Shown here: in pieces, positions 4,242 through 61,068 of the stretch
How positions within the stretch are numbered: the first letter of the stretch is position 1
Layout: the number at the start of each line of letters is the position of its first letter
From: a virus
Virus record (IMG/VR): IMGVR_UViG_3300023184_003849
Coordinates: 32,001 to 96,000 of that record
Reading direction: 5' to 3' (one strand)
Length of the DNA stretch: 64,000 nt
Position numbers and translations under genes: made by a program
The notes under the pieces: generated by a model
The model's database searches: none
Seen by the model: only the letters and a program-made list of their open reading frames with translations
Told to the model about the DNA's origin: nothing

Positions 4242-4286
4242 TAATACTTTTGTATTATTGACCAAAATCTCCATCTGTGTTATAAT
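4242..4286 (+). promoter_or_regulatory. sigma70-like promoter with upstream TAATAC-N4-GTATTA palindrome
   Basis: TTGACC(4258)-17-TATAAT(4281); palindrome at 4242-4257. Confidence 0.75.
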
Positions 4287-4784: not shown

Positions 4785-5390
4785 ATGCCCGCAGTATTTT
4801 TGACAAGCGACACACACTTTGGACACGCAGGTGTATGTCGTTTCACGCACCCAGATGATCCTGAAGTGAAATTGCGTCCCTGGACTGATCCAGACGAGAT
4901 GGATGAAGCCATGATCAAGAACTGGAACGAACGTGTTCGCCCCAGCGACAAGGTCTACCACTTGGGTGATGTGGTGATCAACCGTAGAGCCTTGAAGACA
5001 TTGAGTCGTTTAAACGGCGACAAGGTTTTGATCCGTGGCAACCACGACATCTTCCGCGATGACGAGTACCGCGAGTACTTTCGTGAATTGCGGGCGTATC
5101 ATGTGTTGAACGGCATGATCTTGAGTCATATCCCTGTGCATGAAGCAAGTTTGGGTCGCTTTGGTGTAAACATTCACGGCCACTTGCATGCTACTCGTGT
5201 TAAGCGAGCACGTGGAGTTGACGCAAAGACTGGGACTGTGTTATACTCTACTGAGATTGATCCACGCTATCATTGTGTTTGTGTGGAACAAACTGACTTT
5301 GCACCTATCTTGTTTGAAGACGTGATCCGGCGTATTGAAGCAGAAGGTGGTGTAGTTGGGTTTAAATCCGGCAACGGCCCTACAATGTAA
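4785..5390 (+). CDS. Calcineurin-like metallophosphoesterase
   Basis: SDTHFGH, HLGD, GNHD, HGHLH motifs. Confidence 0.92.
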   Translation: MPAVFLTSDTHFGHAGVCRFTHPDDPEVKLRPWTDPDEMDEAMIKNWNERVRPSDKVYHLGDVVINRRALKTLSRLNGDKVLIRGNHDIFRDDEYREYFRELRAYHVLNGMILSHIPVHEASLGRFGVNIHGHLHATRVKRARGVDAKTGTVLYSTEIDPRYHCVCVEQTDFAPILFEDVIRRIEAEGGVVGFKSGNGPTM

Positions 5391-5427
5391 ATTTTTACAA
5401 AAGGTAAATAAAAGTTCACACAAGGGG

Positions 5428-5456
5428 TTGACAAGGTATAAATAAACCTATACAAT
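5428..5456 (+). promoter_or_regulatory. sigma70 promoter heading the tRNA island
   Basis: TTGACA(5428)-17-TACAAT(5451); predicted +1 at about 5463, the A of the leader ATG. Confidence 0.85.
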
Positions 5457-5462
5457 AAGCAC

Positions 5463-5609
5463 ATGATGAAACATTCCGCACATTATTCAAGACCAGTTTA
5501 TCAGAAGACGCTAAGTCTGGGCACATGCCCCGCCTTGTGGTCGGCAATTGAGAACATGAATAATGGTCGTGAATCAGACAACAATAGGGTCCAAGGAGAC
5601 AGAGTATAA
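5463..5609 (+). CDS. Putative leaderless attenuator leader peptide, 48 aa (MMKHSAHYSRPVYQKTLSLGTCPALWSAIENMNNGRESDNNRVQGDRV)
   Basis: Translated by hand; ATG at the predicted TSS; its 3' end overlaps the antiterminator arm. Confidence 0.6.
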   Translation: MMKHSAHYSRPVYQKTLSLGTCPALWSAIENMNNGRESDNNRVQGDRV

Positions 5610-5639
5610 TTTAATACATACTCATACTTCAAAGACCCT
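5586..5639 (+). promoter_or_regulatory. Putative antiterminator hairpin
   Basis: AGGGTC(5586-5591)/GACCCT(5634-5639), GGAG(5595-5598)/CTTC(5627-5630), GAGTAT(5602-5607)/ATACTC(5618-5623); sequesters the terminator 5' arm. Confidence 0.65.
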
Positions 5640-5668
5640 GGATTAAAAACCCAGGGTTTTTTGTTTTT
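5631..5668 (+). terminator. Intrinsic terminator (attenuator)
   Basis: AAAGACCCTGG-ATTAAAAAC-CCAGGGTTTTT followed by a U-tract. Confidence 0.85.
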
Positions 5669-5681
5669 GATAAAGGAAAAA

Positions 5682-5837
5682 ATGACAGATACAAAATCTA
5701 AACGTCAGGCAGAATACACGCGACAGCACACACTAACCGAAGCAGATCTTCGCAAGATGATGGCAGAAAAGTTAGAACGTGCTCGAGCGTGGCATAATGC
5801 CCTTATCAAACGACGAGTTCTACAAGAGAACCGTTGA
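5682..5837 (+). CDS. Small basic hypothetical protein, 51 aa (MTDTKSKRQAEY...LQENR)
   Basis: AAGGA SD; translated by hand; below the ORF-track cutoff. Confidence 0.6.
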   Translation: MTDTKSKRQAEYTRQHTLTEADLRKMMAEKLERARAWHNALIKRRVLQENR

Positions 5838-5870
5838 TTCACCTAGTGGTGACAGGAAACGCGATCCCGC

Positions 5871-6042
5871 AACACACTCTAAACAGTTGCAAATGGGCGG
5901 CCTCGGGGATGGAGTTCTTCTTGTAGAACAAAAAATCCGAGCGTATCGAAGCATATCAGTTGCCAAAGGCATCGTGCGGCCATTCAAGGTCGGGGTTTGT
6001 GATCTTGGTGTGCTTCGATACACACATTTGCAAGAGTGTGTT
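5871..6042 (+). ncRNA. Unknown structured RNA preceding tRNA-Leu
   Basis: AACACACTCT/AGAGTGTGTT and TTGCAAATG/CATTTGCAA closing helix; internal 16-bp helix GTATCGAAGCATATCA/TGGTGTGCTTCGATAC. Confidence 0.55.
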
Positions 6043-6045
6043 CAT

Positions 6046-6136
6046 ACCCTGGTGGCGAAATTGGCAGACGCACTTCTCTCAAAAGGAAGAAGGAAAAACA
6101 CCTAAGTTGTGAGTTCGAATCTCATCCAGGGTACCA
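6046..6136 (+). tRNA. tRNA-Leu(CAA)
   Basis: Cloverleaf, long variable arm, CCA. Confidence 0.92.
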
Positions 6137-6140
6137 TGTT

Positions 6141-6232
6141 GGAAGATAATGCAGGTGCGTTGGTGCGCCGACTGGCCTTGAAAACCAGGTTCCGAGAAAT
6201 CGGATGGGGTTCGACTCCTCTGTCTTCCGCCA
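6141..6232 (+). tRNA. tRNA-Ser(TGA)
   Basis: Cloverleaf, long variable arm, G73, CCA. Confidence 0.9.
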
Positions 6233-6238
6233 AGTTGT

Positions 6239-6312
6239 TCGGGAATAGTGTAATGGTAACACCACAGACTTTGACTCTGTTATTCTAGGTTCGAGCCCTA
6301 GTTCCCGTGCCA
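6239..6312 (+). tRNA. tRNA-Gln(TTG)
   Basis: ACAGA-CTTTGAC-TCTGT, CCA. Confidence 0.92.
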
Positions 6313-6344
6313 AAACAACTGTTGTAAAAACGCAACAGCCAGCA

Positions 6345-6373
6345 TTGACCAATAATCCAGTTGATGCTACAAT
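6345..6373 (+). promoter_or_regulatory. sigma70 promoter
   Basis: TTGACC-17-TACAAT; upstream palindrome CTGTTG-TAAAAACG-CAACAG (6319-6338). Confidence 0.75.
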
Positions 6374-6417
6374 AGAACTTAACAAAGCAACAAAGTAGAT
6401 CGCGACTGGTTGCACAA

Positions 6418-6428
6418 GATCTTTAAAA
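6418..6428 (+). promoter_or_regulatory. boxA-like antitermination site
   Basis: GATCTTTAAAA about 40 nt after the predicted TSS, as in rrn leaders. Confidence 0.5.
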
Positions 6429-6436
6429 TCAACAAA

Positions 6437-6627
6437 GAGGTTACCAGACCCGTTAGTGGCGTTGGTAGAGGTTGTGAGTGTACCGGCGGGTACACGCCTA
6501 CTACCAGTCATGAAGCCGGCTCTCCCCCTGGCGGGGTGATCCAGAAAAGCGGCGGATCGTCTGGCAGTAATGACCGTGGTGACTTGGCCTCGCAAGCCAA
6601 GCAGAACGAGATCCACAACGGTTCCTC
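6437..6627 (+). ncRNA. Unknown GC-rich structured RNA
   Basis: GAGG/CCTC closure; CCAGAC/GTCTGG, TGGTAG/CTACCA, GTGTACC/GGTACAC and ACCGT/ACGGT helices; no credible ORF. Confidence 0.55.
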
Positions 6628-6642
6628 AATGTAAAACTACAT

Positions 6643-14075: not shown

Positions 14076-14291
14076 ATGCGACCAGCAATGATTTGGATTT
14101 TGAGTTTCAGCGTATTGGGTCCTGAGCCGCACTATCAAGAAATACCCAAGTTCACCAGTCGCGAACAATGTGAAGCGGCCCTGCAACAAAAACGTGAAGA
14201 GTATCGTGCCCAGCGTAAACAGATTGCGGGCACTTGTACACAAAGCACTCAAAGTGCGCCCAAACAAACGCCAAGCATGCCGGCTCATTAA
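14076..14291 (+). CDS. Small hypothetical protein
   Basis: ORF track; AGGA SD; F.SREQC motif. Confidence 0.6.
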   Translation: MRPAMIWILSFSVLGPEPHYQEIPKFTSREQCEAALQQKREEYRAQRKQIAGTCTQSTQSAPKQTPSMPAH

Positions 14292-14294
14292 TGG

Positions 14295-14323
14295 TTGACA
14301 AATAACTAAAATGAATATATAAT
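14295..14323 (+). promoter_or_regulatory. Consensus sigma70 promoter of tmRNA
   Basis: TTGACA-17-TATAAT. Confidence 0.85.
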
Positions 14324-14329
14324 AACGAG

Positions 14330-14669
14330 AACAGCGTAAACTGTTATTGAGAAAAGGATTCTGGACGCGGGTGCGAATCCCGCCAGGTCCACCAAAAGAA
14401 TATTTATGATTGAAGCAATTGGATTTTTTGTTACATTGTTAGTTTTAATGTGGATAGCAACAATCTTGGGTGAAATATTTTTTTGATGGGCCTGATATAG
14501 ATTCGACAGGGTCAAGAGTAAAAGTAATGGCGCTCGGCAATGTAGAAGCCGTTAGGGTTGGGGATTCCCGGCCGAAGACACAAAAAACGTAAATGCAAAC
14601 GACGAACAGTTCGCTTTGGCAGCCTAAACACTGCCTAGGGTAGGAAATACCTCGTAACAGAAACCACCA
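14330..14669 (+). ncRNA. ssrA: Circularly permuted two-piece tmRNA; tag (A)ANDEQFALAA
   Basis: Acceptor piece ends CAGGTCCACCA (14394) before the coding piece begins GGGCCTG...GATTCGAC (14488); G3:U70; tag ORF 14595-14627; outer ends approximate. Confidence 0.93.
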
Positions 14670-14691
14670 AGCCCACTTCGGTGGGCTTTTT
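14669..14691 (+). terminator. Intrinsic terminator
   Basis: AAGCCCAC-TTCG-GTGGGCTT-TTT. Confidence 0.9.
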
Positions 14692-14708
14692 CTTGGCTAA
14701 ATATCGGC

Positions 14709-30651: not shown

Positions 30652-31685
30652 GTTAAATTCCTAATTTGAAGTATATCATAGTCTGGATCACTCCAGCGAT
30701 AGTCATATGTAGCCCTGGTTGTGCCGGTACGCACTTTATACACATCCTGGTGCTGACTCAATTGCGAATATATTATTTGCCAGTCTTCTGTACCAAACGT
30801 CCTTTTGAGATCAACTTGCCCGATTTGAGGGTGGCCGATTGTAAGACCTGGGTCATCTGGGTTGAATCCATTCCGTTCAAGCCACGTTCGAAATTCGGCC
30901 AACTGTCGGATTTGCCAGGAGTAAGCACCGGGATCACGGGCCCATTCAATATCAAAATCAGCAGCCGCTTGAGTCTGAGTACGTAATCCTGAGGTAACCA
31001 ATTCTGAAATCCTTGAGTCCCTGCCCTCATCTTGAAATACCTCCCAATGGTGCTTGCCCACTGCTTTATTTACACCTACATATACACCACCCAATTTTCT
31101 ATTGATTGTTTCTATACCAAACAATTCTAAATCTGATTCTTCCAACTCAAATCGTGGAGCATTAAGCCAGCACATGAGTTGACTAGGTCTACGCCATTCG
31201 GGTGCTGTTTGTGCCTTACGTATACTGAGTACCAGGCTTTCAAACTCGTGGCATAACAAATTCAATTGTCTAATGTGCCAGCGTGTGGAATCATCTGCTT
31301 GAGAATAATAAGGACTCATAGCCCCTGCTGTGCCTTGTAAATCTTCAAAATAACGATGTAGTTGATTAAGATGTTGGTGGTTGGTTCTGCCTTGACTGTC
31401 TATGCTGTTGGCAGGTGAGAAGAAATCTTGTATTTTATAATTTAAGTTGCTTGAATTTATAGCATGGATTGATCTATTGATTTGAGTACACAAATATTCT
31501 GGATTGCGAGCACTTTCGGCCCAGCCCAACCAACAGTAATTTTTTTCTAGGTGTAATTGTTGATCAATAATATTATTCAATGCCGCAAGCCATTTACGGC
31601 TGAGACTGTTGTCTTCAACATTTATGTATACCGTAAAAATTTGATTTTCGGCACTCCGTAGGTCTATTTCAATCAAATCAAGCAA
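30648..31685 (-). CDS. Hypothetical protein (LNQLHRYFE, VGKH motifs)
   Basis: ORF track; coupled within the operon. Confidence 0.75.
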   Translation of the reverse strand: MLDLIEIDLRSAENQIFTVYINVEDNSLSRKWLAALNNIIDQQLHLEKNYCWLGWAESARNPEYLCTQINRSIHAINSSNLNYKIQDFFSPANSIDSQGRTNHQHLNQLHRYFEDLQGTAGAMSPYYSQADDSTRWHIRQLNLLCHEFESLVLSIRKAQTAPEWRRPSQLMCWLNAPRFELEESDLELFGIETINRKLGGVYVGVNKAVGKHHWEVFQDEGRDSRISELVTSGLRTQTQAAADFDIEWARDPGAYSWQIRQLAEFRTWLERNGFNPDDPGLTIGHPQIGQVDLKRTFGTEDWQIIYSQLSQHQDVYKVRTGTTRATYDYRWSDPDYDILQIRNLT

Positions 31686-48600: not shown

Positions 48601-51600
48601 TTAGCCTCTAAAAAACTCGGCGGCTTCAGTGTTGGTATATTCCAAACCCACACCATCGTAAGCAGTGGTCGAACCCGCACCGTACCAACTGAGTCCTTGA
48701 CGTACTTGAATTGTGACCTGATAACCTGCTGTGGGTGCTGTGGTAAATTGTACTGTGACTGGGTTGTCTCCAGTGACTGAGTACCCACTGGTTTGCAGAA
48801 GTCCGCCTACATAAACCAAAACAGCCTGCTCGTCAAAAGTGGAATCTTCTTGGCTTAGATCTACATCTGCTGTGAAGATAGTGGTAGTTCCGTCTGCCAA
48901 GGTGTTAGATCCTTCATAATGATCTTGATATTCTACCGGTGCTAAATTGTCTCGGTTGAGATTGTATACAGTGTCACCTGTTGAGTGCAATGTCACAGCA
49001 GTGCCTGCCGTACCTCTCAACAGACTGCTCACTGTGTTGGTGATTGTATCGCGTTGACGATACATGATGCGCTCGCCATTGACTGTTAGAACTCCCCATA
49101 TGTTATTGGCAAGATCAGGTTCCGCAAGTGCACCTGCATCGTTGACATATATTGTGTCCTGGTCAGCATACAATGTTTGAACCAATTCAGTGGTGGTTGC
49201 TGATGTCATTCTATATGTGGCCTGAACGCCACGCATGTCTTGGAAAATACGCAATTCCAAACCAGTTATTGGATCACTTTCAAGCACCACAATGACAGAG
49301 CCATTGGCTGGCGCAGTATTGAAAGTTACTTCGGCCACTGTGCTGTCACTGCTGACTGTGTATTGATCTGGAGATATTACCACATTGTTCACTGCTACCT
49401 CAACGTCCAATGAAGCAGTGGGTGCATAGTAAGGCCCAGTTGTGGAGCCGTCCCCATAAGAAAGGTTGAATTGTCTAGAGTACACACGGAAGTCCAAGGT
49501 GTCAAAGACAGCACCAGGAACAAGTTCTTCTGGAGCATGACTTTCATATGGACCAACAAATTGGCCGCCATCAACATTGATATCTGTGGCTCTGGTTCCC
49601 AAGTAGGGATCTAAAAAACTGCTTTCGTAGATGGCATCAAGTATGGCCGGATCATATGTGGGACGCCCCTCAGGTCCATAACTGATGTTGTCAAAAGGAT
49701 TTATGTCAAAATTCCCTACATCAAATCCAGTGTTTTGTGAAAATGTGGGTGCCAACACCTGCACCCCGGGATAGGCAATTCCATCAATCAACAACGGTAA
49801 ATCCAGTCCTGGTTCATTGGGTCCTGGCACATAGTAACCCATGGTGCGATCAACGCCACTTAGAGCACTGGCTGGAATCAACAGCCAATTGTCAGGATCA
49901 AATTCGGCAGATTGCACAGGCGTACTGTCACCGCTGTTGGCTTGCCATACTCTGTTGTCATAGCGCACTTGAACGCCGTTGTCATAAGCCACGTTGGCTT
50001 GCCAAGTTTCAATTGTCGTGGTGTATTGATAACGATCGTACCGGATAGTGGTGTTGATGCTACGAACCAAATCGTTGCCCATGACAGCCACGATCCGTCC
50101 TCCTGTACCGTTACCACCCGAAACAGTTATGATGGCTGTTGAGGTATAACCTGACCCTGGGTCAGTTATAGTAACAGAACTGATCACGCCTGCGCTGTTG
50201 ACAGTGGCTGTCATTGTGGCCTGAGACACACAGTCTCCTGTGACAGTAAGTTCAGGTGCAACTGTGTAGCCACTGCCGCCGTCGGCAATGACCACATCCT
50301 GAATGCTGAGAGTGTAGTTTTCAAACCAAAAACTGTAAGGTTGAGTTTGCCATAAAGCACTGTCAGGATCAACGTCACTGTAGGTACTGGGATGGCCTGT
50401 TCCTGTGGCTGTACTCAAAGTATAAGGAGTCAACACAGGACTCATGTACTGATTGGGCACTTGTGTGGTATTGTAAAATGCTGGCAAATCAAAGTCAGCC
50501 AGAGTACCTTGATACACATCAAGACCGTTATAGATCAAATTGAATTCACGTATTTGCACATGATAGGGTTTGACTTCTTGAATATAGTTCAACACAAAAT
50601 CTTGATTGTCTCTTTGATATGTTTGATAAGGAATCAACTGACGAATTTTGTGGTCAACGTCAATCAAACTGGTCTTGGTCAGCCACTCAGGTGCTTCAAA
50701 TTCGCTCAGCACAAAGTTGAACATAAGGATCAATGCACGGTTGCGTTCGATCAGTAGATCTCCAATCAACAACTGCTCGTTGATTGCCTGTATAATCTTC
50801 CTGGTTTCTGTCACAGGCTCTTGATCAAAGTGCTGTGCATCAAAAACCTCAACATCAAATCCATAACGACCCAGAGCATAATCCCACAGTTCGGCTAGGA
50901 ACTGTATGGTTCCGTCCTGTAAACCCACTCGATCCCATCCTGTGTTGGTTCTCAAGTATATTTCAAATTTGCCTTGACTGTTGGCAGTAACTTTGACACT
51001 ACTGCCCACAGGAGCCGCTGTCAGACTTAGAGTGTTGAGAGTGGCCACATTGGACACTTCAGCAATGATCTTGACACTTGAATTGTAGCCCGGCAAATAC
51101 CATGTGACATATTCCCAATAGTTCCTAGTGTCATAATTTTGCACACGACTCAAGAACAGAGTAGCAAAAGTCTTGGGAGTGGTTACTGTGTAAATGGTCC
51201 ACAAACCGTTTTGAGTGCTGTCGCTGACCACCAGATACTTGTAGCCTACTGGTACTTGAACTAGATCCTGATAACTGAGTTCTTCGATGTTGGCCACACG
51301 CTTGTTCCAGGCTCCAGTGCCTGTTTGAGGTTCTGGTTCACTGCTGTTCAACAAATTAAAACTGCGAATTTCTGATATGGGATACTGTAGCAACACTGCA
51401 TTCACGTACTGCAAATAATTTTGCAGAGCCAAAAATCTGTTGTCAAACATGCTTTGTCTAGGGCGGAACTGCACACCATAGCGTTGTGCAGGACTCAACC
51501 CAGGATCAGGCACAAGAGCCCCCAATGGATCTGCACCACATAAACTGTCTTGTAATTTTTGATAGAGGTTGTCTGGCAAAAATCCATCAGCACGATCTTG

Positions 51601-54600
51601 AGGCAACAGATCATACTGTACATGCACATTGTTGTCTGTAAATTGTCTGTCAAATTCGATGCTGATCACAGTGTCGCTGGCACTGAGTTGATCCTGCGCA
51701 TTGTATATCGCTGTGGCACTGGGACTTACAAATGCCACATAAGGAATACCACTGCTACGGGGATCAGCAATGTATCGTGCAATACCAGATGGGCTGAGAG
51801 TTTTGCCTATGGTGGTATTGATTGTGGTGATATTTTTGACCCAAAAATAATAGGTGGTTGCAAATACCCCAGCGGTATTCAAACCAGTGGTAACACTGTA
51901 ATTGACTGTGTTTTTGGGCACTCCAGGGCCTGCATAGTTGGCAGGTGGCACTGAACTGGCTGTCCATTGGTATACATCAACACTTGATCCAGGGAACGTT
52001 TGTCCCCAGCGTCGTGCCGCATACACAATGTCATCTTGGTTGGGATCAATAAATCTCACTGAATTAGTATCCCACCAAATTTGACCCACATAGGAAGTTG
52101 CCCAAATTCTTCCATTGTTGTTTTTTGCGCCCACATTGTAGGCAGCAGGATCGACAGCACCAATATAATCGATATTTTGTCGTGCCGCACCCAATATTTT
52201 GCCTTGTAAAGGATCAAAGAAATCCAAAAATGCTGTTTTTGCGCTGGTAATTCTATCATAAGTGAACACACCATTGATCAAAGAAACATCTACCACCGGC
52301 TGTTGTAGGTTGGTCACCCGCCAGGATGGAGAAAGATCAGGATTGTTAAATATGCTCACAGCACCATAATTTTGTGCTATCAATGTGCTGTCACCAAGGT
52401 CATCACCGGGACTGCCCGCCAACAAAATACCATTGGTATAATCAACCGCGGTTCCATAACGGTCCAATTCGCTCACTGTTTGATCATAAATCTGTAGACC
52501 AAATGCAAATTTGCCGGGTGTGGCCGCTGAATCAGTTGCGCTGGCAAAATAATCATATGTGTAAACTGCACCGCTCTGTACCAATGGTCCGACAAATGCT
52601 GTGGTCTTGCTGTCAAAATAAGTGTTGCCACTGTCAAAAGTTGTGGGTCTATACAAATTGCCACGTGGTGCCCCCACTGTGAGTGTGAGGGCACTGGTAT
52701 CAATATTCACAGCACTTCCAAATCCAGCATAGGCCACTGGATACGGGCTCACAATTGTTTGAGTGTAGACAAAAGTTTCAAACACCATGCTGTCAAAAAT
52801 GTTGCCAATCAGGCCAGGAAGCACAGTCAACTTGTTGCCAGACACTGCCGCATCGGTATTTTCAACGCTGATTGTGAGCAAACCAAACCCTTGTGTTCCA
52901 GGCACTGAACCAGCATAGGCAATCACATTGGGTACAGTGCTGTTGTTGATATCCTGTGCCAGTACTGCGGCCCAACTACTGGGTGTCCAGTAGTTGGTAT
53001 CATTCAAAGATGTACCCACTGGCACAGTCTGCACAGCAATCCAAAGACCTTGGTTGTATTCTACTATGGTATCTACAGCAAAAGTCAGCGCACTGTTCCA
53101 AGACACAGGAGCACTCAGTGCCACTTCCATGTTGTTTATTCTAATGGTGTTGCCAGGGTTCAATCTGGCATTGATGGTTGAGGTTGTGACTCCATACACA
53201 CGACTTTGATTTACTTGTCTTTCTACCGCGCCTGCTTGTGGCAGAATACTACCATCTTGCGGAGCACCTGCATAAAGGCTACAGTTGTATCTACAAAGAT
53301 CAACAGCCTGCCCATAATTTGCATTTTCAAAGGCAGCATTGGATCCAATGATTTGTAGCAGACTAAATGTGTTTATTTCAATTTCCAGTATGTCTCCTAC
53401 TGCGGCAGGAGATGCCAGTGTGATCTCGTTGGCACCTGTAACTGTATATTCACTAGATGTACTTCCTGCTGTGTCTGACAAAAATTCATTGTTGAGTATG
53501 ACTGAGGTAGGAGACACCAGTGGTGCATCAGTGGTGTATACTGTTTGTGTATTACTGGTCACAATGAATCTTTGCACCGACCTGTCATACACATATACTG
53601 CTCCTGCGCCAGACACACTGTTATAAGAATCGCCAGAACAGCCCACAATCACTTGCCTGCCATCTGTTGAGCAACTGACTGATTGACCAAATCTTGCATT
53701 GGCTGCTAGGCCTTGTGGTGCCAATGCGTCAACATAAGTGTAGTAACTTTGTGTAATCACATCCACCGTGCCAGTTGGTGCAACAGTAAAGGTTATGTTT
53801 CTGGTGGCAGTGTCAAAAGAGTAATCTATATTAGGCCGTTGAATCGTGCCATTTACTGTGACTTTGAAACTGTAAATATTTTTGGCACTGTACAAGTATT
53901 CATTCAAAGAAAATGTCAAAGTTACACCGTTGCCTGTGAATGTTTTTTCAACTCTTCGACCAATTTTTAACACAAGATCTTGAACTGGAATAGAATTTAA
54001 CACCACCGTGGTGTCTGTCACAGTGTAATCGGTGCTGTAGGTCAACAGTTGATTGTTGAGGACCACAAACAGTTGTTGATACTCTCCTGAATCTATTATG
54101 ACATCATTGTTGTATTGAAACACAAATTGTGTGCCATTTGTTGTGTATTGTACCAGTTGATTTTGTACCTCAACAAGGCTGTAGGCAAACACCTGATTGA
54201 TACCCGGAGCCCCAATGTACATCCAGTGTTCATCAGCACTGACCACAACACTGGTACCAAATTCACTGCCAGAATCTATGTAGGTGTCATCGGGCACGGT
54301 CAACAGATTTGACAACAAGAAAGTGGGACTATTGGGGAATCTATAAATTATGCCCACATACCCAGAATTGGCACTTGAGTCTGATCCAATGCTGTCAGGT
54401 GCACCCACTGCGGCCCATGTTTGACTGCCAATGCTGACGCAGGACCCAAAACCGTATGTGCCAGGATTATCACATTCAATTCTGCTGTTTTGAGTAAAGG
54501 GGTTGCCTGATGTTCTGACAAAAGTGTATACTGCCCCTGACTGTGTGTCTCCGTAACTGGGAGCCCCCACAATAGCATAGACATTTTCGTGTGCTTGATC

Positions 54601-57600
54601 AACAGCCGCGCCAAAATCACTATTGGCCACAGGGGAATCTACTGTGATTTGTCCTGTGGTTTGAAATACCTGTTGCTTTTGAACCACTTGCCACAAACCA
54701 CCACCATTGTCATCTATCCAAACATAGTCGCCAACAAGCAAATTATTAGCATAAGGAAGATCAACAATATCGCTGCCTTGTGCCACTCGTTGACTTTGCA
54801 GAGTAAATGCTGTGCCTGTTCCTGTGGCCACAATTTGATCTATCTGTAAGAAACTGAAAGCAATTGTGACTTGAAAAATATTTGGTACATTTATTACTCG
54901 ATAAACACCATCTACGCCCGAGCCAAAATACTTGATCAACAAAATATTGTCCACTGTCAAACCATGTGCCTGACTGAACGTGACCACCGCAGTGCCATTG
55001 AGATTGCTATTGACCTGTGTGACTTTGCCTTGTGCTTGTGCAGTTCTATAGATGCCCCAGTCATAGTCATTGATCTTGGCAACCCAAACTATGGATCCCA
55101 CGTTGACATTGTTTAGGTCAGCAGCCAGCGACGCAGTATTGTCAATGTTGAACACTGTGATGTCAACATCGTCAATGTTGACGTATCCAGCACTGGGCAA
55201 CACAGTGTCAGTTTTTTTGACCAAAGTGGTGGTTAAAATATCAGGACTGGTTATTTTGTAACTTTGATTCCAGATATCGTTTACTAAAACTGTTTGTTCT
55301 GCCTGGCTGGTTTCTCCAGGCACGACCACTTGTACCAAACTTGGGTTTGAAGTCAATAAGGCTTCATTCAGTCGTATTTCATAGAAACTTCTGTTGGCGT
55401 TGGCACCATATACACCACGTTGCACTGCCCAGTTTTCATAGATCTGATACTCGTTGACTCCACGACCGAGATCAGCAAATGTAAAAATTTCAGCGGCACG
55501 CACAGTGCCTTTGGTGCCAAGAAATTGACGATACAGATTCACTTGACTGGTACTGTCAAGATTAAGGGCAACCATATACTCTCTAGGTTTGAATCCAATC
55601 AAGTTATAGGCAAACAGGTCTTGGTTGAGTTCAAGATTGGCTTGGTACACATTGTATGTGTTGGCCAATTGGTCGCTCTTGTTGGGCAGGTTAGGTAACA
55701 GACCCTGTTGAATCAGAGTGTAGTCACTGCGTGTCCAGTTGTTGAAATCAAACTTGGGTTTGGGCTGTACAATATCAACTGCACTGTAATAAAAGTTTTT
55801 GTACAACACAATTTCACCACGAGCATATTTGCGTAGTGGTTCCCATTCTTTTACATTGTCTTGATTTAATATAAAACCAGGTGCATTGAGTTGACCATTC
55901 CAGTCTTGTGTAACTGATCCAATCAATCTTATTCTACTTTGTCTAGCACCAGTAGCAGGATAGTAAATTAAATCAGCAAATATGCTTTGATTGTCCAACA
56001 CAACCATGTTTTCATAAGATGTAAATTTAATGTGGAAATAGTTTATGGTATCAGCAGTGAGACTTCTCAGAGTAAATGTGTTGTCCAGCCTTTCAACCAC
56101 TAGATCTCGCGTGGCAAATGGAGTACGATCAGCATTGAGAACCATGTTTTCTGTTGTTTGTAATGCAATGCTGTCAACTATGGCCTCAGGTCTTTCCACA
56201 ATTATCTGTGTGGCGCCTGGATTCAAATTTATAATGCTTCCTTCGGCCCACCCTTGACCACTCCAGTACAGAAATTCGCTGACCATTTGATTCCAGTCAA
56301 GCACGTAGCCATTTTCCATTTGATTGAATACCAATCCCTGTTCTTGTAGTAGGGCTCCATAACTCAGTAAGAAATCTGCTACCAAGGTTCTGTTGGTGAA
56401 TGTGTATCCATAAGGTACCTGGACCACTTGGTCGCTGTAACTCACTGGCACACGCACTTCAAACCCGCCAGCACTTATTGTACTCAACACCCCGTTTACC
56501 TTGCTGACCAAGATGTCAAAGTAAGGTTGTATGGTGCTATAGCCGTATACTGCCCACCCATTTGCCGTTGACTGCACAATGATACTGCTGTAGGTCAACT
56601 GATCAAAAGGTACGTTCTTGTAAAACAACAGGTTGTAACTTTCATCGGGCAACAGCAAACTTGAGTTTAGACTGTTGGGGCTGGATTTTTCAGTATAAAT
56701 TTCTAGTAGATTTTTGCCTGTAAAAGCAGCCATTCTGTAGCACAAACGCACGTCAAGATTTTTTAGATCTGCTGTGAGTGCGTCGGTGGAATTGATTCCA
56801 CTTACTCGATTGAAGTCCACAATCCAGTCAATGTAACTGGCCTTGCTGACGCCGTTGCCATAGACTTCAATGCCATTGGCATCCAGTCTGTAACGACCGT
56901 TGTAGAGATATTGACCCAGTTCTGCATTATAGCGATAAAGATCACGATCTGCAAACAGGCTGAAGAATTCTGCTGGACGTGTGAGGGCCAACAGGCGCAT
57001 GATGGCAAATGGATATGCACTACTGGTTCTCCAGGCGTTCTCTACAGGAGCATCGTCACCAACCGCCCAATTTCTCTGGAAGTTGTTGCTGTTGAAATTA
57101 CCAACCACTGTTTCAATGGGCGGTAGTAACGCACCTTCGCTGCCGGATGGAATCACCTGTGTAAGTTGAGGTCTTGCATATTGAGGCAACACGTAAGGTG
57201 CCACAGGGTCTCGCACTAGACCTGCTGCCAAGTCATCCCACAACACCAAGTTGCCTGACGTGTAAGGTGCAGGACCGTATTCTGCTTCCCACCAAGAAGG
57301 CATTACACTGAAACCCAGCATTTCCCAAGGTCTTGTGTTGGGACTTATTGTGTCATAAAAATAGTTATAGATGCCGCGCCAGGCGCCTACGGCCAATGGT
57401 TGATTGGCAGTCAACTTGTTGCTGGCTGTGCTGTAATTCCAGGTGAAACCATTGTTGGGCAGGTAGTCCTGTGACTTGTAGTCCAATTTGTTCCAGCCAA
57501 CCCAGGTCAAAAAGTCTTGACTTTCTATGCCGGTGATTTCCTCCAGGGTATAATCTGTTGTGCGGAACTGTCCAGGCATAACTTCAGTGGCCACGAGGGG

Positions 57601-60600
57601 CACAGGATTACCATCCAGTTTCAAATTGTTGTATATTCTGGTTTCAAATTCCAACAACACTTGATCACGCAAGTCACCAAAAGCCACAGTGATACTTCCA
57701 TCGTGGCCGCGTATGACTCTTCTGGGCGTGACATAAGTGGTATCAATATAGGTCTCGGGCACAAACGCAGGATACAAACCCAGTTTGGTTGGAGTATTGG
57801 GTACAAATGTACCGTATGTGTCAGCATATTCCTGTATCACCACTGTGTCGCCCACTGCTAGTGGTATGGTAATGGTCAACGTTGGTGCATCTGTTGCCAC
57901 CACATATTCAATACCTCTTGTGAGCAGTCGGTCATTCACATACACAGATAATCCCAAATAGTTGGCAGAAGTGTAGTTGTATACTTGTGCAAGGTCAAAA
58001 GTATCTGTGGTAATAAAACTGATCACTGTTGAAGATTGTGTGTACACATTGCTGGCAGGCAACATGTCACTCCAATAAAATGGATTTGCACTGGTACGTC
58101 CAGCCACAAGATCAGTCACTACAGCAGTGAGTATTTCAGGCACAGTCATATTCACATAATCGCCAGACACAGCGGCATTCAACAATTGTGCTTTGTACTT
58201 TTCGTATTCTCTTGAATTAAATTCAAGACTGGCAAATATATTGTAGTTGGCACTGCGCAAAAAATAACCTGCCAATGTCATTGGTGCGCTTTGTTGTAGT
58301 ATGTTCAAGCCAAATGGTATGATATTGCCAAGGTCGCGTGAATTGTTGGCTCCATTTATTTTTCCTGTCAAGCCAATCAAGTTTTGTCCAATGGTATCGT
58401 AGTGGGTCCGTATAGTGCCTAGTGTGAGATTGGCAGCATTCTCATTCAAGGGATTGTTTTCAAGATTGACAGGAACTTGGTAAAAACCCACAGCACTGAC
58501 TTGGTCACTCAAGACCAACACTTCAATTATTTGTCCTGGCACAATTAGGGTGGTAGTAGGAAATGTGATAGTGGTAGTATTAGTTGTTGTTGTATAGGTA
58601 TAAGAGCCTGGATCCTGGAACTCACTGTCCACATAGATCTTGATAGACGGAACTGTGTCTACTGGCAAGGCTGCCACATCCAACAACAAAGGTGTGTTAG
58701 AGGCGTAAGTAAAACTAAACTGCTGATAGATCTTGCTCTTGACTGCGGCCGTTTGCCAACCTATTTCTTTGGTATAAACAGTGCGATTGGCATACTGTCT
58801 TACAAATCCAATGCTGATATTTTTGGTATAACTTATGTCATTTTGCACATAAAGAAATGTGTCAGCATAGAGGTTGTTGTCAAAAACAATATCACCTATG
58901 TTGTTGAGACTGAGATACCGTAGAGGAAAACCCAACACAGTATCGTCTAGACCCGGCCCTAAAGCATAACTAAACAATTTGCTGCCTGCAAATGTACTGC
59001 TAGGATAGGCCACAGGATTGCCAAGACTGTAGCCATTGGTGTCAAATACATCAAACAACGGTGCTTGATTTACTCCAGTTTTTTGTTGTGCCCGAATCCA
59101 TTGCACACCATCATAATAAAAACTTATACCTTGCAAGGTGATGCCGCTGAGACAGACCACTGTTTGGTCAACCAGCACATCAGCATCTGAGGCAGGAACC
59201 AGATTGATCACTGGATATGAGAATGAACTGCCATCGTCACTGAAAGTAACAAATTCTACCACATAAATTTTGTTTCTTACGTCTGGATCGGTGTCACCAG
59301 CAAATATAACTCTAGTTCCCTCAACAAAAGTGTATCCATCTACACCATAACCCACTGTGCCATTTATGGTGCTGAGAGCATCTGTTGTGGCAAAATCAAT
59401 GATGTCCACAGGTTGTTTGCCTTGTGTGCCCATGTGCCATAATCTAGTTCCACCGCGGAATTCCAAAATAGGTCGCTTGGCCCTGTAGGCATTGTCAAGC
59501 ACAGGTATTGTGTTATTGTAAGTGGCTGCGGCTGAAATTACGTCAACATGAAACCAACGATTGCTACGGCTCCAGGCATTCAAGTCTGGTGAGTCCAATG
59601 CCATGGTAAGGTAGTCAGGCACCAAAGGCTGATTCAAACTGGCATCAAAATTACCCACGTCATAAGGTACAGAATCAAAAGGCACGGTGGCACTTTGAGT
59701 GTAGGTTTCAGGTGTGACATAATTGGTGACTGGCAATAATTGAATTGCTGTGCCAACTCCTGACACGTAGTATTCTTGATTGGTATAACTGCTGGGCACA
59801 ACCGGAGCAAGAAATTGCACTTTGAGATTGTTGGTAAACACCACACCATTGGGGCTGGTGTAATTTTTCTTGCCCAAGATATCTGTTGCAACATTGATAG
59901 TGGAACTGTCCGCTTGATCCACTAATCTAATTTGTCCAAAGATGTCTGGATTGGTGCCATCTTGATACCATAACACATCTTTGATTGCAGTCAATAGCGG
60001 AACCTGAGAGATCACACTGCTGGCATCATTGTACCAAGTGGTACTGGCCCACTGTGTGCCAAACAACACGTCAAATTTTGTCAATGTGCTCAGTGTAGAA
60101 ATAGGCAACAAGTTTACAATAGGCAAATTGTTGATGTCATAGGAGTATTGAATCTGCCAAACGTTGTTGGTTGGAAATGTTGGACTGGTTGTGAATACCA
60201 ATGTTTTGTTGTTGAGATTGGTTATGCCATCTATGCCACCATAGTCAGCAATGATGTCGCTGAGATACATGCCGTTCAACTGATCATAACTCAAATCACT
60301 CAGCAGGTCTACATTACCTATGCTGACAAGATCATAATAGAACTGTTGTGCATTTTTGAATGGCACATAAAAAGTCACTGTGCCTAGATCTTCGCCATTG
60401 TTGGTCACTCCCATCACACTTCTACTGCTGATGTTAGGTGCATAAGGCAATTGACCATTGATGCCAGGATCAGTTTGAATCCAGAATGGATTTCCAGTCT
60501 GGCTCACTTCAAAAGTGTAATTGCCCCCACGTACCAGCGTTATGGTAGGATTATTGCCTATTGCTCCACTGAACGTGTATGAGTTGGTACCACGAACAAC

Positions 60601-61068
60601 TGAGAAATTGTCTGTCAAAGGTATTGCTGTGGCAAACACATTTACAGCATCAGGTCCTGCCGGTAACCAATAGTACTGACTGTAGTTTACAAACTTGTCA
60701 AAACTTACAAAGGGATCCCAGGTATAATAATCACTGGTATACAGTCGATCACTGTTGTTGGTCACTGCACCTTGTATTGCCAGAGAGTCTGTGATACCTG
60801 GATAAGTGATGGCATCTTGTATCTCTTCAGTGTCGGGTTTGAGACTGATAACACCAGGCTCCAATTGATAGTTGGCTCGAGTGGCATTGGGTTCTAGCAC
60901 ATAGTAATCATTGGGGTTGACCCCCGGACCAACCCTGCGTCCAACATAACCCTGTACTTTTTCAAATGCAGGTTCTTGAACCAACTGATCAAGCGTGGCA
61001 TTTAAAAATTGTTTGTTAGGAACAGTCTGAAATATTTCAGGTAAAAAATCAACAGTGCGTATGGCCAT
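48601..61068 (-). CDS. Giant 4155-aa virion protein (baseplate/tail, with FG-GAP-like propeller repeats)
   Basis: Uninterrupted ORF; FGxxV...GAP...GAVY repeats; repeated beta-sandwich modules (V.VNG, FT.AP..G); next to the baseplate wedge gene. Confidence 0.85.
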   Translation of the reverse strand: MAIRTVDFLPEIFQTVPNKQFLNATLDQLVQEPAFEKVQGYVGRRVGPGVNPNDYYVLEPNATRANYQLEPGVISLKPDTEEIQDAITYPGITDSLAIQGAVTNNSDRLYTSDYYTWDPFVSFDKFVNYSQYYWLPAGPDAVNVFATAIPLTDNFSVVRGTNSYTFSGAIGNNPTITLVRGGNYTFEVSQTGNPFWIQTDPGINGQLPYAPNISSRSVMGVTNNGEDLGTVTFYVPFKNAQQFYYDLVSIGNVDLLSDLSYDQLNGMYLSDIIADYGGIDGITNLNNKTLVFTTSPTFPTNNVWQIQYSYDINNLPIVNLLPISTLSTLTKFDVLFGTQWASTTWYNDASSVISQVPLLTAIKDVLWYQDGTNPDIFGQIRLVDQADSSTINVATDILGKKNYTSPNGVVFTNNLKVQFLAPVVPSSYTNQEYYVSGVGTAIQLLPVTNYVTPETYTQSATVPFDSVPYDVGNFDASLNQPLVPDYLTMALDSPDLNAWSRSNRWFHVDVISAAATYNNTIPVLDNAYRAKRPILEFRGGTRLWHMGTQGKQPVDIIDFATTDALSTINGTVGYGVDGYTFVEGTRVIFAGDTDPDVRNKIYVVEFVTFSDDGSSFSYPVINLVPASDADVLVDQTVVCLSGITLQGISFYYDGVQWIRAQQKTGVNQAPLFDVFDTNGYSLGNPVAYPSSTFAGSKLFSYALGPGLDDTVLGFPLRYLSLNNIGDIVFDNNLYADTFLYVQNDISYTKNISIGFVRQYANRTVYTKEIGWQTAAVKSKIYQQFSFTYASNTPLLLDVAALPVDTVPSIKIYVDSEFQDPGSYTYTTTTNTTTITFPTTTLIVPGQIIEVLVLSDQVSAVGFYQVPVNLENNPLNENAANLTLGTIRTHYDTIGQNLIGLTGKINGANNSRDLGNIIPFGLNILQQSAPMTLAGYFLRSANYNIFASLEFNSREYEKYKAQLLNAAVSGDYVNMTVPEILTAVVTDLVAGRTSANPFYWSDMLPASNVYTQSSTVISFITTDTFDLAQVYNYTSANYLGLSVYVNDRLLTRGIEYVVATDAPTLTITIPLAVGDTVVIQEYADTYGTFVPNTPTKLGLYPAFVPETYIDTTYVTPRRVIRGHDGSITVAFGDLRDQVLLEFETRIYNNLKLDGNPVPLVATEVMPGQFRTTDYTLEEITGIESQDFLTWVGWNKLDYKSQDYLPNNGFTWNYSTASNKLTANQPLAVGAWRGIYNYFYDTISPNTRPWEMLGFSVMPSWWEAEYGPAPYTSGNLVLWDDLAAGLVRDPVAPYVLPQYARPQLTQVIPSGSEGALLPPIETVVGNFNSNNFQRNWAVGDDAPVENAWRTSSAYPFAIMRLLALTRPAEFFSLFADRDLYRYNAELGQYLYNGRYRLDANGIEVYGNGVSKASYIDWIVDFNRVSGINSTDALTADLKNLDVRLCYRMAAFTGKNLLEIYTEKSSPNSLNSSLLLPDESYNLLFYKNVPFDQLTYSSIIVQSTANGWAVYGYSTIQPYFDILVSKVNGVLSTISAGGFEVRVPVSYSDQVVQVPYGYTFTNRTLVADFLLSYGALLQEQGLVFNQMENGYVLDWNQMVSEFLYWSGQGWAEGSIINLNPGATQIIVERPEAIVDSIALQTTENMVLNADRTPFATRDLVVERLDNTFTLRSLTADTINYFHIKFTSYENMVVLDNQSIFADLIYYPATGARQSRIRLIGSVTQDWNGQLNAPGFILNQDNVKEWEPLRKYARGEIVLYKNFYYSAVDIVQPKPKFDFNNWTRSDYTLIQQGLLPNLPNKSDQLANTYNVYQANLELNQDLFAYNLIGFKPREYMVALNLDSTSQVNLYRQFLGTKGTVRAAEIFTFADLGRGVNEYQIYENWAVQRGVYGANANRSFYEIRLNEALLTSNPSLVQVVVPGETSQAEQTVLVNDIWNQSYKITSPDILTTTLVKKTDTVLPSAGYVNIDDVDITVFNIDNTASLAADLNNVNVGSIVWVAKINDYDWGIYRTAQAQGKVTQVNSNLNGTAVVTFSQAHGLTVDNILLIKYFGSGVDGVYRVINVPNIFQVTIAFSFLQIDQIVATGTGTAFTLQSQRVAQGSDIVDLPYANNLLVGDYVWIDDNGGGLWQVVQKQQVFQTTGQITVDSPVANSDFGAAVDQAHENVYAIVGAPSYGDTQSGAVYTFVRTSGNPFTQNSRIECDNPGTYGFGSCVSIGSQTWAAVGAPDSIGSDSSANSGYVGIIYRFPNSPTFLLSNLLTVPDDTYIDSGSEFGTSVVVSADEHWMYIGAPGINQVFAYSLVEVQNQLVQYTTNGTQFVFQYNNDVIIDSGEYQQLFVVLNNQLLTYSTDYTVTDTTVVLNSIPVQDLVLKIGRRVEKTFTGNGVTLTFSLNEYLYSAKNIYSFKVTVNGTIQRPNIDYSFDTATRNITFTVAPTGTVDVITQSYYTYVDALAPQGLAANARFGQSVSCSTDGRQVIVGCSGDSYNSVSGAGAVYVYDRSVQRFIVTSNTQTVYTTDAPLVSPTSVILNNEFLSDTAGSTSSEYTVTGANEITLASPAAVGDILEIEINTFSLLQIIGSNAAFENANYGQAVDLCRYNCSLYAGAPQDGSILPQAGAVERQVNQSRVYGVTTSTINARLNPGNTIRINNMEVALSAPVSWNSALTFAVDTIVEYNQGLWIAVQTVPVGTSLNDTNYWTPSSWAAVLAQDINNSTVPNVIAYAGSVPGTQGFGLLTISVENTDAAVSGNKLTVLPGLIGNIFDSMVFETFVYTQTIVSPYPVAYAGFGSAVNIDTSALTLTVGAPRGNLYRPTTFDSGNTYFDSKTTAFVGPLVQSGAVYTYDYFASATDSAATPGKFAFGLQIYDQTVSELDRYGTAVDYTNGILLAGSPGDDLGDSTLIAQNYGAVSIFNNPDLSPSWRVTNLQQPVVDVSLINGVFTYDRITSAKTAFLDFFDPLQGKILGAARQNIDYIGAVDPAAYNVGAKNNNGRIWATSYVGQIWWDTNSVRFIDPNQDDIVYAARRWGQTFPGSSVDVYQWTASSVPPANYAGPGVPKNTVNYSVTTGLNTAGVFATTYYFWVKNITTINTTIGKTLSPSGIARYIADPRSSGIPYVAFVSPSATAIYNAQDQLSASDTVISIEFDRQFTDNNVHVQYDLLPQDRADGFLPDNLYQKLQDSLCGADPLGALVPDPGLSPAQRYGVQFRPRQSMFDNRFLALQNYLQYVNAVLLQYPISEIRSFNLLNSSEPEPQTGTGAWNKRVANIEELSYQDLVQVPVGYKYLVVSDSTQNGLWTIYTVTTPKTFATLFLSRVQNYDTRNYWEYVTWYLPGYNSSVKIIAEVSNVATLNTLSLTAAPVGSSVKVTANSQGKFEIYLRTNTGWDRVGLQDGTIQFLAELWDYALGRYGFDVEVFDAQHFDQEPVTETRKIIQAINEQLLIGDLLIERNRALILMFNFVLSEFEAPEWLTKTSLIDVDHKIRQLIPYQTYQRDNQDFVLNYIQEVKPYHVQIREFNLIYNGLDVYQGTLADFDLPAFYNTTQVPNQYMSPVLTPYTLSTATGTGHPSTYSDVDPDSALWQTQPYSFWFENYTLSIQDVVIADGGSGYTVAPELTVTGDCVSQATMTATVNSAGVISSVTITDPGSGYTSTAIITVSGGNGTGGRIVAVMGNDLVRSINTTIRYDRYQYTTTIETWQANVAYDNGVQVRYDNRVWQANSGDSTPVQSAEFDPDNWLLIPASALSGVDRTMGYYVPGPNEPGLDLPLLIDGIAYPGVQVLAPTFSQNTGFDVGNFDINPFDNISYGPEGRPTYDPAILDAIYESSFLDPYLGTRATDINVDGGQFVGPYESHAPEELVPGAVFDTLDFRVYSRQFNLSYGDGSTTGPYYAPTASLDVEVAVNNVVISPDQYTVSSDSTVAEVTFNTAPANGSVIVVLESDPITGLELRIFQDMRGVQATYRMTSATTTELVQTLYADQDTIYVNDAGALAEPDLANNIWGVLTVNGERIMYRQRDTITNTVSSLLRGTAGTAVTLHSTGDTVYNLNRDNLAPVEYQDHYEGSNTLADGTTTIFTADVDLSQEDSTFDEQAVLVYVGGLLQTSGYSVTGDNPVTVQFTTAPTAGYQVTIQVRQGLSWYGAGSTTAYDGVGLEYTNTEAAEFFRG

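Follow-up and report, generated by a model that had tools for sequence, protein, structure and literature searches.

A candidate ribosome-dependent transcription attenuator at the head of a tRNA and non-coding RNA island in a giant phage

An island of tRNA and non-coding RNA (ncRNA) genes in a lake-water phage known from metagenomic sequence is probably headed by a transcription attenuator whose outcome depends on a ribosome translating a short leader open reading frame (ORF). The stretch of DNA analysed here, referred to below as the window, comprises 64,000 nucleotides, namely bases 32001-96000 of the 121,846-base IMG/VR record IMGVR_UViG_3300023184_003849, whose completeness is put at 35% by CheckV; we regard its source as a giant phage because related contigs reach 330-365 kb. 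The metagenome runs with related sequence are aquatic, freshwater, riverine and marine, every one of them with a small word share. The element in question occupies positions 5428-5668 on the plus strand, and comprises a sigma70-type promoter, a 48-codon ORF, a three-helix hairpin that begins within the last codons of the ORF, and an intrinsic terminator that shares bases with the hairpin. A first-pass annotation, prepared from the letters of the window, had proposed it as a candidate attenuator that would monitor nearly all tRNAs at once and gate the phage tRNA array; in our analysis the switch itself is retained, and the signal and the scope are drawn differently.

In the mechanism that we propose, RNA polymerase would start at the strong promoter at 5428 and a ribosome would translate the 48-codon ORF. 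Its last seven codons and the stop codon make up the 5' arm of the hairpin, and the 3' arm of the hairpin holds the first five bases of the terminator stem. A ribosome following close behind the polymerase would reach the stop codon and unwind all three 5' arms, and the terminator would then form about 50 bases further on, with the transcript ending at about 5665. If translation were late, stalled or never begun, the hairpin would persist, no terminator would form, and the polymerase would read through into a 51-codon ORF, a structured RNA and genes for tRNA-Leu, tRNA-Ser and tRNA-Gln. Naked RNA would be expected to default to the antiterminator. The signal sensed would be the general speed or capacity of translation and not one amino acid: since the leader has no codon run and contains 19 kinds of amino acids, it would work like the upstream open reading frames (uORFs) that report general translation stress, not like the amino-acid-specific members of the class.

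The evidence comes from a comparison of copies that were collected in several ways. The marker-gene set consisted of the 80 best of 596 confirmed loci encoding the phosphoesterase that neighbours the element. Homology to the window in the 290 bases 3' of the phosphoesterase gene was found in four of these 80 loci (three distinct sequences), and the remaining loci carry unrelated cassettes at that spot, frequently made up of a terminator, a consensus promoter and a small ORF in this order. Metagenome contigs were scanned with the peptide as the anchor, and the 11 loci gained in this way brought the number of distinct close copies to 12, including the window, and a search of viral contigs with two shared motifs as the pattern gave 17 stretches with 13 new loci, among which six variants were new and distinct, their ORFs having 43-50 codons. 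With a covariance model based on the close copies, 20 copies were identified in 35 sources (that of the window and 19 further ones), and just a single copy in the window's own incomplete record. Distinct variants of the ORF number 19, of which 12 are close and seven distant. Two of the remoter relatives deserve a description. At L079:2141, a terminator taken up in a control set turned out to belong to a diverged copy with a consensus promoter, a 49-codon ORF, the same helices 1 and 2, a different helix 3 and an overlapping terminator, followed by a structured RNA like that at 5838-6045 of the window and then by tRNAs. The copy in L045 has diverged further: its ORF has 36 codons, and its hairpin, of another sequence, runs through 14 bp without interruption. 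The close group was all that came out of two pattern scans, one with helix 3 and the other with the promoter plus the middle of the ORF as the anchor (4 and 2 stretches, respectively), a peptide-alignment scan of viral contigs with the divergent peptides returned only two contigs that were already known, and a blastn search of 5380-5700 against 50,697 phage records gave no match. Described at first from a single sequence, the layout of promoter, ORF, antiterminator and terminator is shared by 20 copies found in related giant phages.

The promoter, TTGACA-17-TACAAT at 5428-5456 (-35 element at 5428-5433, -10 element at 5451-5456), matches the consensus at 11 of 12 positions, and its -35 element, spacer and -10 element are nearly invariant among the 12 close copies. 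The ATG at 5463 stands 6 nt past the -10 hexamer, which makes a predicted +1 at its A geometrically plausible. The transcript had accordingly been called leaderless, and the spacing in the window fits this description, but it is not conserved: an ATG is present at the predicted +1 in only three of the 12 close copies (the window, L090 and L092), the other nine having AAG or AAC there and a start codon 3 nt later, where the window has a second ATG (5466). In six distant variants the start codon lies 31-58 nt past the nearest -10 element with purine-rich tracts ahead of it, and in L045 about 10 bases separate the -10 element from the ATG. A consensus promoter with an ATG exactly 6 nt past the -10 element is also seen at 30763 of the window's own genome (1237 bases before the window), where it precedes a 115-codon ORF, and in the relatives L002, L003, L004 and L012, where it precedes long ORFs (MKLEINE...); in this group of phages, genes with no leader or almost none may be frequent. 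Eight RNA runs have related sequence, each with a small word share, and the four that were compared in detail consist of assembled contigs, which cannot show transcript starts, ends or levels. In one of these runs, X2, a metatranscriptome contig of 213 nt (record 11) spans 5416-5608 in a relative, and the depth in X2 falls after 5612.

The leader ORF (5463-5609, with the stop codon TAA at 5607-5609) is open in all 19 distinct variants, with 40-48 codons in the 12 close ones and 36-50 codons in the seven distant ones. Indels of 9, 6 and 6 nt separate the close copies, and every one of them preserves the frame. In the close set the ratio of non-synonymous to synonymous polymorphism (pN/pS) is about 0.35-0.39 in frame (0.39 when summed over pairs) versus 1.33 and 0.65 in the other two frames. 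The stop codon is located at the apex of the hairpin in 19 of 19 variants and begins 20-24 nt past GGGTCC in the 18 variants that possess this helix 1 motif. Three variants decode GGGTCC as Gly-Ser, the others as (Arg/Gly)-Val; it is read in two different frames and has therefore been kept as an RNA motif and not as a part of the peptide; together with the conserved end of the frame, this argues for selection on the RNA motif and on the position where the frame ends, not on the C-terminus of the peptide. By these comparative criteria the leader ORF looks translated.

The hairpin (5586-5639, plus strand), found by single-sequence and step-wise folding and by comparison, carries the stop codon at its apex and consists of three helices: AGGGTC at 5586-5591 pairs with GACCCT at 5634-5639 (helix 1), GGAG at 5595-5598 with CTTC at 5627-5630 (helix 2), and GAGTAT at 5602-5607 with ATACTC at 5618-5623 (helix 3). 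In the close set 14 of its 17 pairs are invariant, two have changed on one side and still pair (A-U to G-U and U-A to U-G), and one is broken in one sequence. Variable columns account for 4 of 34 paired versus 10 of 22 unpaired positions (Fisher P=0.0097), and for 2 of 17 versus 7 of 15 in the non-coding 3' arm alone (P=0.049), the apical loop being the most variable part. Helix 3 is different in each of the seven distant variants, whose helices are rebuilt with other sequences, and in 7 of 7, single-sequence folds, which involve no alignment, rank the hairpin first as long as the 3' arm of the terminator has yet to be transcribed. On this pattern of variation, and on the paired changes in a fitted alignment of 20 copies (described below), we consider that the hairpin is under selection.

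The intrinsic terminator (5635-5668) is composed of ACCCTGG at 5635-5641, a 9-nt loop, CCAGGGT at 5651-5657 and a T tract at 5657-5668; a consensus terminator scan did not list it, the loop limit of that scan being 3-8 nt. The stem and the T tract are found in 20 of 20 copies, among which there are three variants of the stem with compensating changes. Five bases (5635-5639) belong to both the hairpin and the terminator in the window, and the overlap amounts to 5-7 bases across the copies. When the window's transcript was folded step by step, the hairpin was the minimum free energy (MFE) structure at transcript ends 5640-5655 and the terminator at ends 5660 and 5664, so that the MFE structure swaps between 5655 and 5660. 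Once the full terminator has been transcribed, the hairpin state is the more stable one in nine of the 12 close copies, by 0.2-5.6 kcal/mol, and in the other three, the window among them, the terminator state has the advantage by 0.6-1.5 kcal/mol; the estimated barriers to refolding in the close copies are 6.7-11.0 kcal/mol. At full length the hairpin is the MFE structure in six of the seven distant variants.

How unusual such sequestration is can be judged from a control in which intrinsic terminators were taken from all fetched loci and the cost of freeing their 5' arm from structure with 60 upstream bases was calculated. For 57 other terminators the cost has a median of 3.3 kcal/mol, a 95th percentile of 7.3 and a maximum of 10.6, versus 10.0-17.5 kcal/mol (median 15.0) for the 12 copies of the element, and the sole control that reaches 10 is the diverged copy in L079 (10.6), which leaves 56 unrelated terminators. 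The freeing cost roughly equals the energy of the terminator hairpin itself, -11.9 to -13.6. The window's copy shows the weakest sequestration because its helix 1 is without one G. The RNA from 5463 to 5668 (206 nt) folds better than 200 of 200 shuffled sequences (z=-2.75). Rfam 15 has no match to 5428-5668 at E up to 1, and in L111, L104 and L045 it identifies only tRNAs at the gathering score. The first-pass annotation had named this promoter, had counted by hand 48 codons, 37 of them distinct, and 19 kinds of amino acids (Phe is missing), and had described the three-helix hairpin with its 5' arm in the last seven codons as mutually exclusive with the ACCCTGG/CCAGGGT-U tract terminator; all of these descriptions agree with our results, including the folding of the growing transcript.

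There are indications of further structure within the leader. The ORF bodies of the distant variants contain long hairpins, and a consensus helix of 4 bp extends to the GGG of helix 1; this is not evident in the window. In the leader ORFs of L103, L104, L106, L107 and L111 there is a long conserved hairpin, UGGUCAGCGAUU ... GAUCGCACACCAG, with an inner GGC/GCC stem. A hairpin in the body of the ORF could be the pause element or the anti-antiterminator of the switch.

The genes that would be subject to the switch lie immediately behind it. The first one past the terminator is a 51-codon ORF (5682-5837, plus strand) with a Shine-Dalgarno-like AAGGA, homologous ORFs being present in L090 and L091. 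It is followed by a spacer that resembles a structured RNA (5838-6045), which has no match in Rfam and appears by eye to be conserved behind the terminator in many relatives, and by the first tRNA block at 6046-6312, with tRNA-Leu(CAA), tRNA-Ser(UGA, 6141-6228) and tRNA-Gln(UUG). From the terminator to this block the window contains no sigma70-like promoter. The next promoter, TTGACC-17-TACAAT at 6345-6373 on the plus strand, matches the consensus at 10 of 12 positions, and strict gating would therefore be limited to 5669-6344. This agrees with the caveat of the earlier annotation, which listed internal promoters at 6345, 8377 and 11237, all of them present (10/12, 12/12 and 12/12 matches). 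Among the 20 copies, 17 have a plus-strand tRNA within 1 kb downstream, and in 14 of these 17 no sigma70-like promoter (at least 10 of 12 matches) is present from the terminator to the first tRNA; on promoter content, the genes past the terminator seem to depend on passage through it, barring an unrecognised type of promoter. Two of the three remaining copies have no more than 200 bases of downstream sequence. In L093, L095, L098 and L100 a 14-codon ORF is followed by tRNA-Ser within about 10 bases and then, except in L100, by tRNA-Gln.

Several further observations concern this region. A conserved 14-15-codon ORF (MSTEEYWQWI...) with a strong Shine-Dalgarno sequence, about 20 nt past the terminator, replaces the 51-codon ORF in nine of the 12 close copies (L092-L100; e.g. 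L093:2703-2747). Sequence related to 5838-6045, recognised by eye from a GGAAACG...GGGCGG core, comes directly after the terminator in L104, L105, L106, L111 and L115, and after a small ORF in L045, L090, L091 and L094. The tRNA-Ser gene at 6141-6228 was missed by ARAGORN; its long variable arm and UGA anticodon were recognised by eye, and in Rfam it matches only the tRNA-Sec model, with 39.3 bits, below the gathering score of 47. The roughly 270 nt that lead from the promoter at 6345 up to tRNA-Glu (6374-6642) are conserved by eye in L092, L093, L095, L099 and L100, have no Rfam match, and are possibly another structured RNA.

A number of points weigh against an attenuator of this kind or restrict its role. 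A run of regulatory codons, the classical hallmark, is absent from the leader, where no codon occurs more than three times. The pN/pS of 0.35-0.39 and an invariant Trp suggest a constraint on the peptide or on the RNA within the ORF that a pure leader could do without. Because most copies came from searches with peptide or helix 1 patterns, the conservation of the ORF and of helix 1 was partly selected for, although three of the close variants were retrieved via the neighbouring gene and are free of the peptide-search bias. No pair of the hairpin has changed on both sides among the 12 close copies. In the alignment of 20 copies 98.2% of the cells are paired and 12 of 17 pairs have changed on both sides, a result reached by 0 of 500 shuffles and compared with at most 5 double-changed pairs in slid controls, but this alignment was fitted to the covariance model and leans to its structure, and RNAalifold, applied to an unfitted MAFFT alignment of 17 copies, recovered the terminator only and not the hairpin. 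Any promoters for a phage polymerase would escape our promoter scan. One copy with 2.4 kb of downstream sequence (L094) has no tRNA there, and in L092, L096 and L099 only the 15-codon ORF separates the terminator from the next promoter. With the covariance model, no more than 7 of the 80 marker-gene loci prove to have the element, which speaks against a general role. These loci contain 12 heads of tRNA runs. Five are preceded by the element at a distance of less than 1 kb and two are inner blocks of element-headed arrays; the remaining five (L033, L049, L058, L060 and L068) have a plain consensus promoter directly before the tRNAs and no switch, and general gating of the array is not supported. 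These five represent a second kind of tRNA block, located 3' of a CMD-family gene, with a 12/12 promoter about 45 nt before the first tRNA and no leader ORF.

The alternative that survives best keeps the same switch and assigns it another signal. According to it, the leader would be maintained with codons for nearly every amino acid and tRNA class, and any loss of tRNA, be it due to anticodon nucleases or to starvation, would stall the ribosome and induce the phage tRNAs. Its basis is the composition of the leader. The 37 distinct codons in the window exceed the mean of 30.8 in a model of phage codon usage (P=0.007) and that of 29.7 in real 48-codon segments (P=0.007), and of the 24 distinct anticodons among the tRNAs of the window, 22 find a codon in the ORF, versus a mean of 17.3 in real segments (P=0.0097). 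There are 41 distinct codons among 47 in L091 and 39 among 48 in L090; all 20 amino acids occur in L090, L091, L103, L106, L107 and L111 (each P about 0.03-0.045), and L045 has 19 kinds in 36 residues (P about 0.03). Cys, Phe and His, as far as can be seen by eye, are found at different positions in different lineages. A published precedent for a stress-responsive uORF that answers to many amino acids is whiB7, as described in PMC10274678. The excess is nevertheless smaller when set against nucleotide shuffles (mean 32.7, P=0.035) or uniform codon use (33.4, P=0.086), so the original estimate of about 33 under uniform use and of a modest enrichment was right. Moreover, low codon bias by itself raises codon diversity, the lineages share ancestry and their P values can be neither combined nor multiplied, and in the commonest subclade, represented by the nine shorter close copies (40-44 codons), codon diversity is unremarkable in comparison with shuffles (P 0.09-0.62) and only 16-19 kinds of amino acids are used, without Phe and often also without Ile and Pro. 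L105 has 18 kinds (z=+0.1). Single codons stall ribosomes weakly compared with the codon runs of classical attenuators. Codon diversity above expectation is thus a property of the window and of several relatives, but it is modest, and we regard a leader tuned to the loss of any tRNA as a possibility on the doubtful side.

A different feature of codon choice is common to all leaders: 19 of 19 favour non-preferred synonymous codons, with codon adaptation index (CAI)-like values of 0.57-0.66 versus 0.743 +/- 0.050, which fall in the lowest 6.2% of real 45-codon segments. A low codon preference fits a slow and sensitive leader, and would be seen just as well if RNA structure dictated the choice of codons.

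The element could also be a small-gene cassette, in which the promoter serves a functional microprotein of 40-50 residues, the terminator is an ordinary leaky one, and the hairpin merely stabilises the 3' end of the mRNA. We consider this unlikely. The pN/pS of the frame would be explained, gene callers predicted the peptide in eight clusters of a 5.8-billion-protein set, and in relatives the region 3' of the phosphoesterase gene is a hot spot of promoter-ORF-terminator cassettes, some of them with an ATG 6 nt past the -10 element; the 115-codon ORF at 30763 of the same genome has this layout as well. Yet among 24 peptides compared the only invariant residues are Met and Trp, the distant peptides are 18-33% identical to that of the window, and the C-terminal codons are read in two frames with the RNA motif kept. 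Neither the 48- nor the 51-residue ORF product has a match in Pfam or PHROGs, and the AlphaFold2 model of the peptide is of low confidence (mean pLDDT 58.9, pTM 0.25), which is weak evidence. A stabiliser of the 3' end need not sequester the 5' arm of the terminator by 10-17.5 kcal/mol, and none of the unrelated terminators does so.

We give an equally low chance to a terminator that would discriminate between promoters. Transcripts started at 5428 would be translated from their 5' end and stop, and those coming from the upstream operon (promoter at 4258) would carry the ORF internally without a ribosome-binding site, leave the hairpin undisturbed and continue into the genes of the island. There is indeed no terminator between the stop codon of the phosphoesterase gene (4785-5390) and the promoter at 5428, the stop codon of the upstream gene abuts the -35 element in nine of the 12 close copies, and the hairpin is the default fold of naked RNA. 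In the distant variants, however, long leaders with purine-rich tracts might make the ORF translatable on any transcript, and the upstream context is different in L096 and L097. Least probable of all, and in our opinion hardly to be expected, is an element that acts as a small structured RNA (about 200 nt) or that is switched by a protein or RNA in trans, with the ORF incidental or secondary, for which one could cite the better-than-shuffled folding of 5463-5668, the ORF-body hairpins of -24.6 to -36.8 kcal/mol in six 5'-leader variants and the report that the attenuator RNA rnTrpL can act in trans (10.1101/606483, PMC7968998), but against which stand an ORF that indels and a change of frame have left open in 19 of 19 variants, a stop codon that is always at the apex, an apical loop that would be the likeliest ligand site and is the most variable part, and the lack of a match to any Rfam family.

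The remaining candidates considered for the element and its peptide can be dealt with briefly. A profile hidden Markov model of the peptide, compared with 1.84 billion representatives, gave 13 matches: three peptides of the family and ten TPR-repeat proteins of 700-1200 residues. In these ten large proteins the matches fall on 42-residue repeats with the motif W..T..NN......R.RGDR, in 3-7 repeated stretches, with E down to 1e-9. We judged kinship on the ground of this motif (W..T..NN...R.RGDR) to be a chance resemblance; the peptide is probably not a fragment derived from such a protein. A type I toxin was rejected, as the peptide, inspected by eye, is not hydrophobic. A palindrome acting at the level of DNA, e.g. 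an operator, was rejected too: the invariant G-U pair in helix 2 and the changes from A-U to G-U and from U-A to U-G fit RNA of the plus strand only.

As to the surroundings, the element is preceded in the window not only by the phosphoesterase gene, but also by a CMD-family gene and a gene for a dual-specificity-phosphatase-like protein. ARAGORN finds 25 tRNA genes in the window in addition to a permuted transfer-messenger RNA (tmRNA), nearly all of them on the plus strand, between 6046 and 14718. The tmRNA gene (14281-14693) matches the permuted tmRNA model RF04321 with 120.8 bits and beta_tmRNA with 119.2 bits, encodes the tag ANDEQFALAA, and has a promoter of its own (12/12, at 14295) as well as a terminator at 14669. 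On the minus strand, 48601-61068 is taken up by a 4155-codon ORF followed by a 967-codon ORF.

Arrays of tRNA genes are common in phages and are increasingly seen as an answer to codon mismatch and to tRNA-cleaving immunity of the host. If the element works as a ribosome-dependent attenuator, it would tie the output of tRNA and ncRNA to the translational state of the infected cell by simple means acting in cis, and it would extend leader-peptide attenuation to genes with RNA products; if, in addition, the leader did respond to a shortage of any one tRNA, the supply of tRNA would be coupled to decoding capacity in a feedback loop. Because the element is compact (about 240 nt) and has a sigma70-type promoter, it can be tested directly in reporters even though the phage is uncultured. 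Our literature searches returned no account of leader-ORF attenuation controlling phage tRNA genes, and related systems are known from other contexts.

The leader-peptide attenuators of amino acid operons, such as trpL, hisL, thrL, pheL and pheM, are the obvious point of reference. The phage element resembles them in its short promoter-proximal ORF and in an antiterminator that has a few bases in common with the terminator's 5' arm, and, in the mechanism proposed here, the position of the ribosome would likewise select the structure, with a ribosome at the stop codon favouring termination. The trp/his geometry first ascribed to the element therefore applies to the terminator, the exclusive antiterminator and the placement of the ORF, but not to the codons, since there is no run of cognate ones. 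The phage ORF is also longer (36-50 codons), its stop codon is at the apex of the antiterminator, a counterpart of the 1:2 hairpin that acts as a pause or anti-antiterminator element is no more than a candidate, in the ORF bodies of distant variants, and the cargo consists of phage tRNA and ncRNA genes, not of biosynthetic enzymes. Attenuation in trp is summarised in the Discussion of PMC4191407.

Inducible tRNA arrays have a precedent outside phages. The trn operon of Anabaena PCC 7120 is a horizontally spread tRNA array that is switched on when translation is impaired (PMC8421152, PMC10272220), but its control, as presented in PMC10272220, is exerted by the repressor TrcR at the promoter, and that account describes no leader ORF or terminator switch. 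A reason for tying tRNA output to the failure of translation can be found in reports on phage tRNAs as counter-defence against tRNA-cleaving immunity (PMC11464382, PMC11555353, PMC12409363), which, in what they present, deal with the function of the tRNAs and not with the regulation of their genes.

The nearest parallels are leaders that report the state of translation as a whole. In the bmrBCD operon of Bacillus subtilis the bmrB leader comprises 53 codons, its translation is required, slow translation favours read-through, and rare codons tune the response, according to PMC4191407. Like the phage element, bmrB combines a long leader ORF with a terminator and an antiterminator, and it senses general inhibition of translation, not one amino acid; unlike the phage element, it controls a drug exporter, answers to antibiotics and has its terminator inside the ORF, there is no relation in sequence, and its regulation has been demonstrated experimentally, whereas the phage element is known from sequence. 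The mycobacterial whiB7 uORF is activated, in the description of PMC10274678, by loss of many genes for amino acids, tRNAs and tRNA synthetases, via stalling and antitermination, and the toiL uORF of E. coli is described in PMC12121999 as responding to five classes of antibiotics by stalling at different codons. Both are uORFs that report many stresses of translation, as we propose for the phage leader. They differ from it in that the whiB7 uORF is enriched in Ala and controls a transcription factor, and toiL operates by occlusion of a ribosome-binding site together with Rho; as reported in these two sources, neither controls tRNA genes and neither belongs to a phage. By analogy, the logic of the phage element appears to be closest to that of the bmrB, whiB7 and toiL systems.

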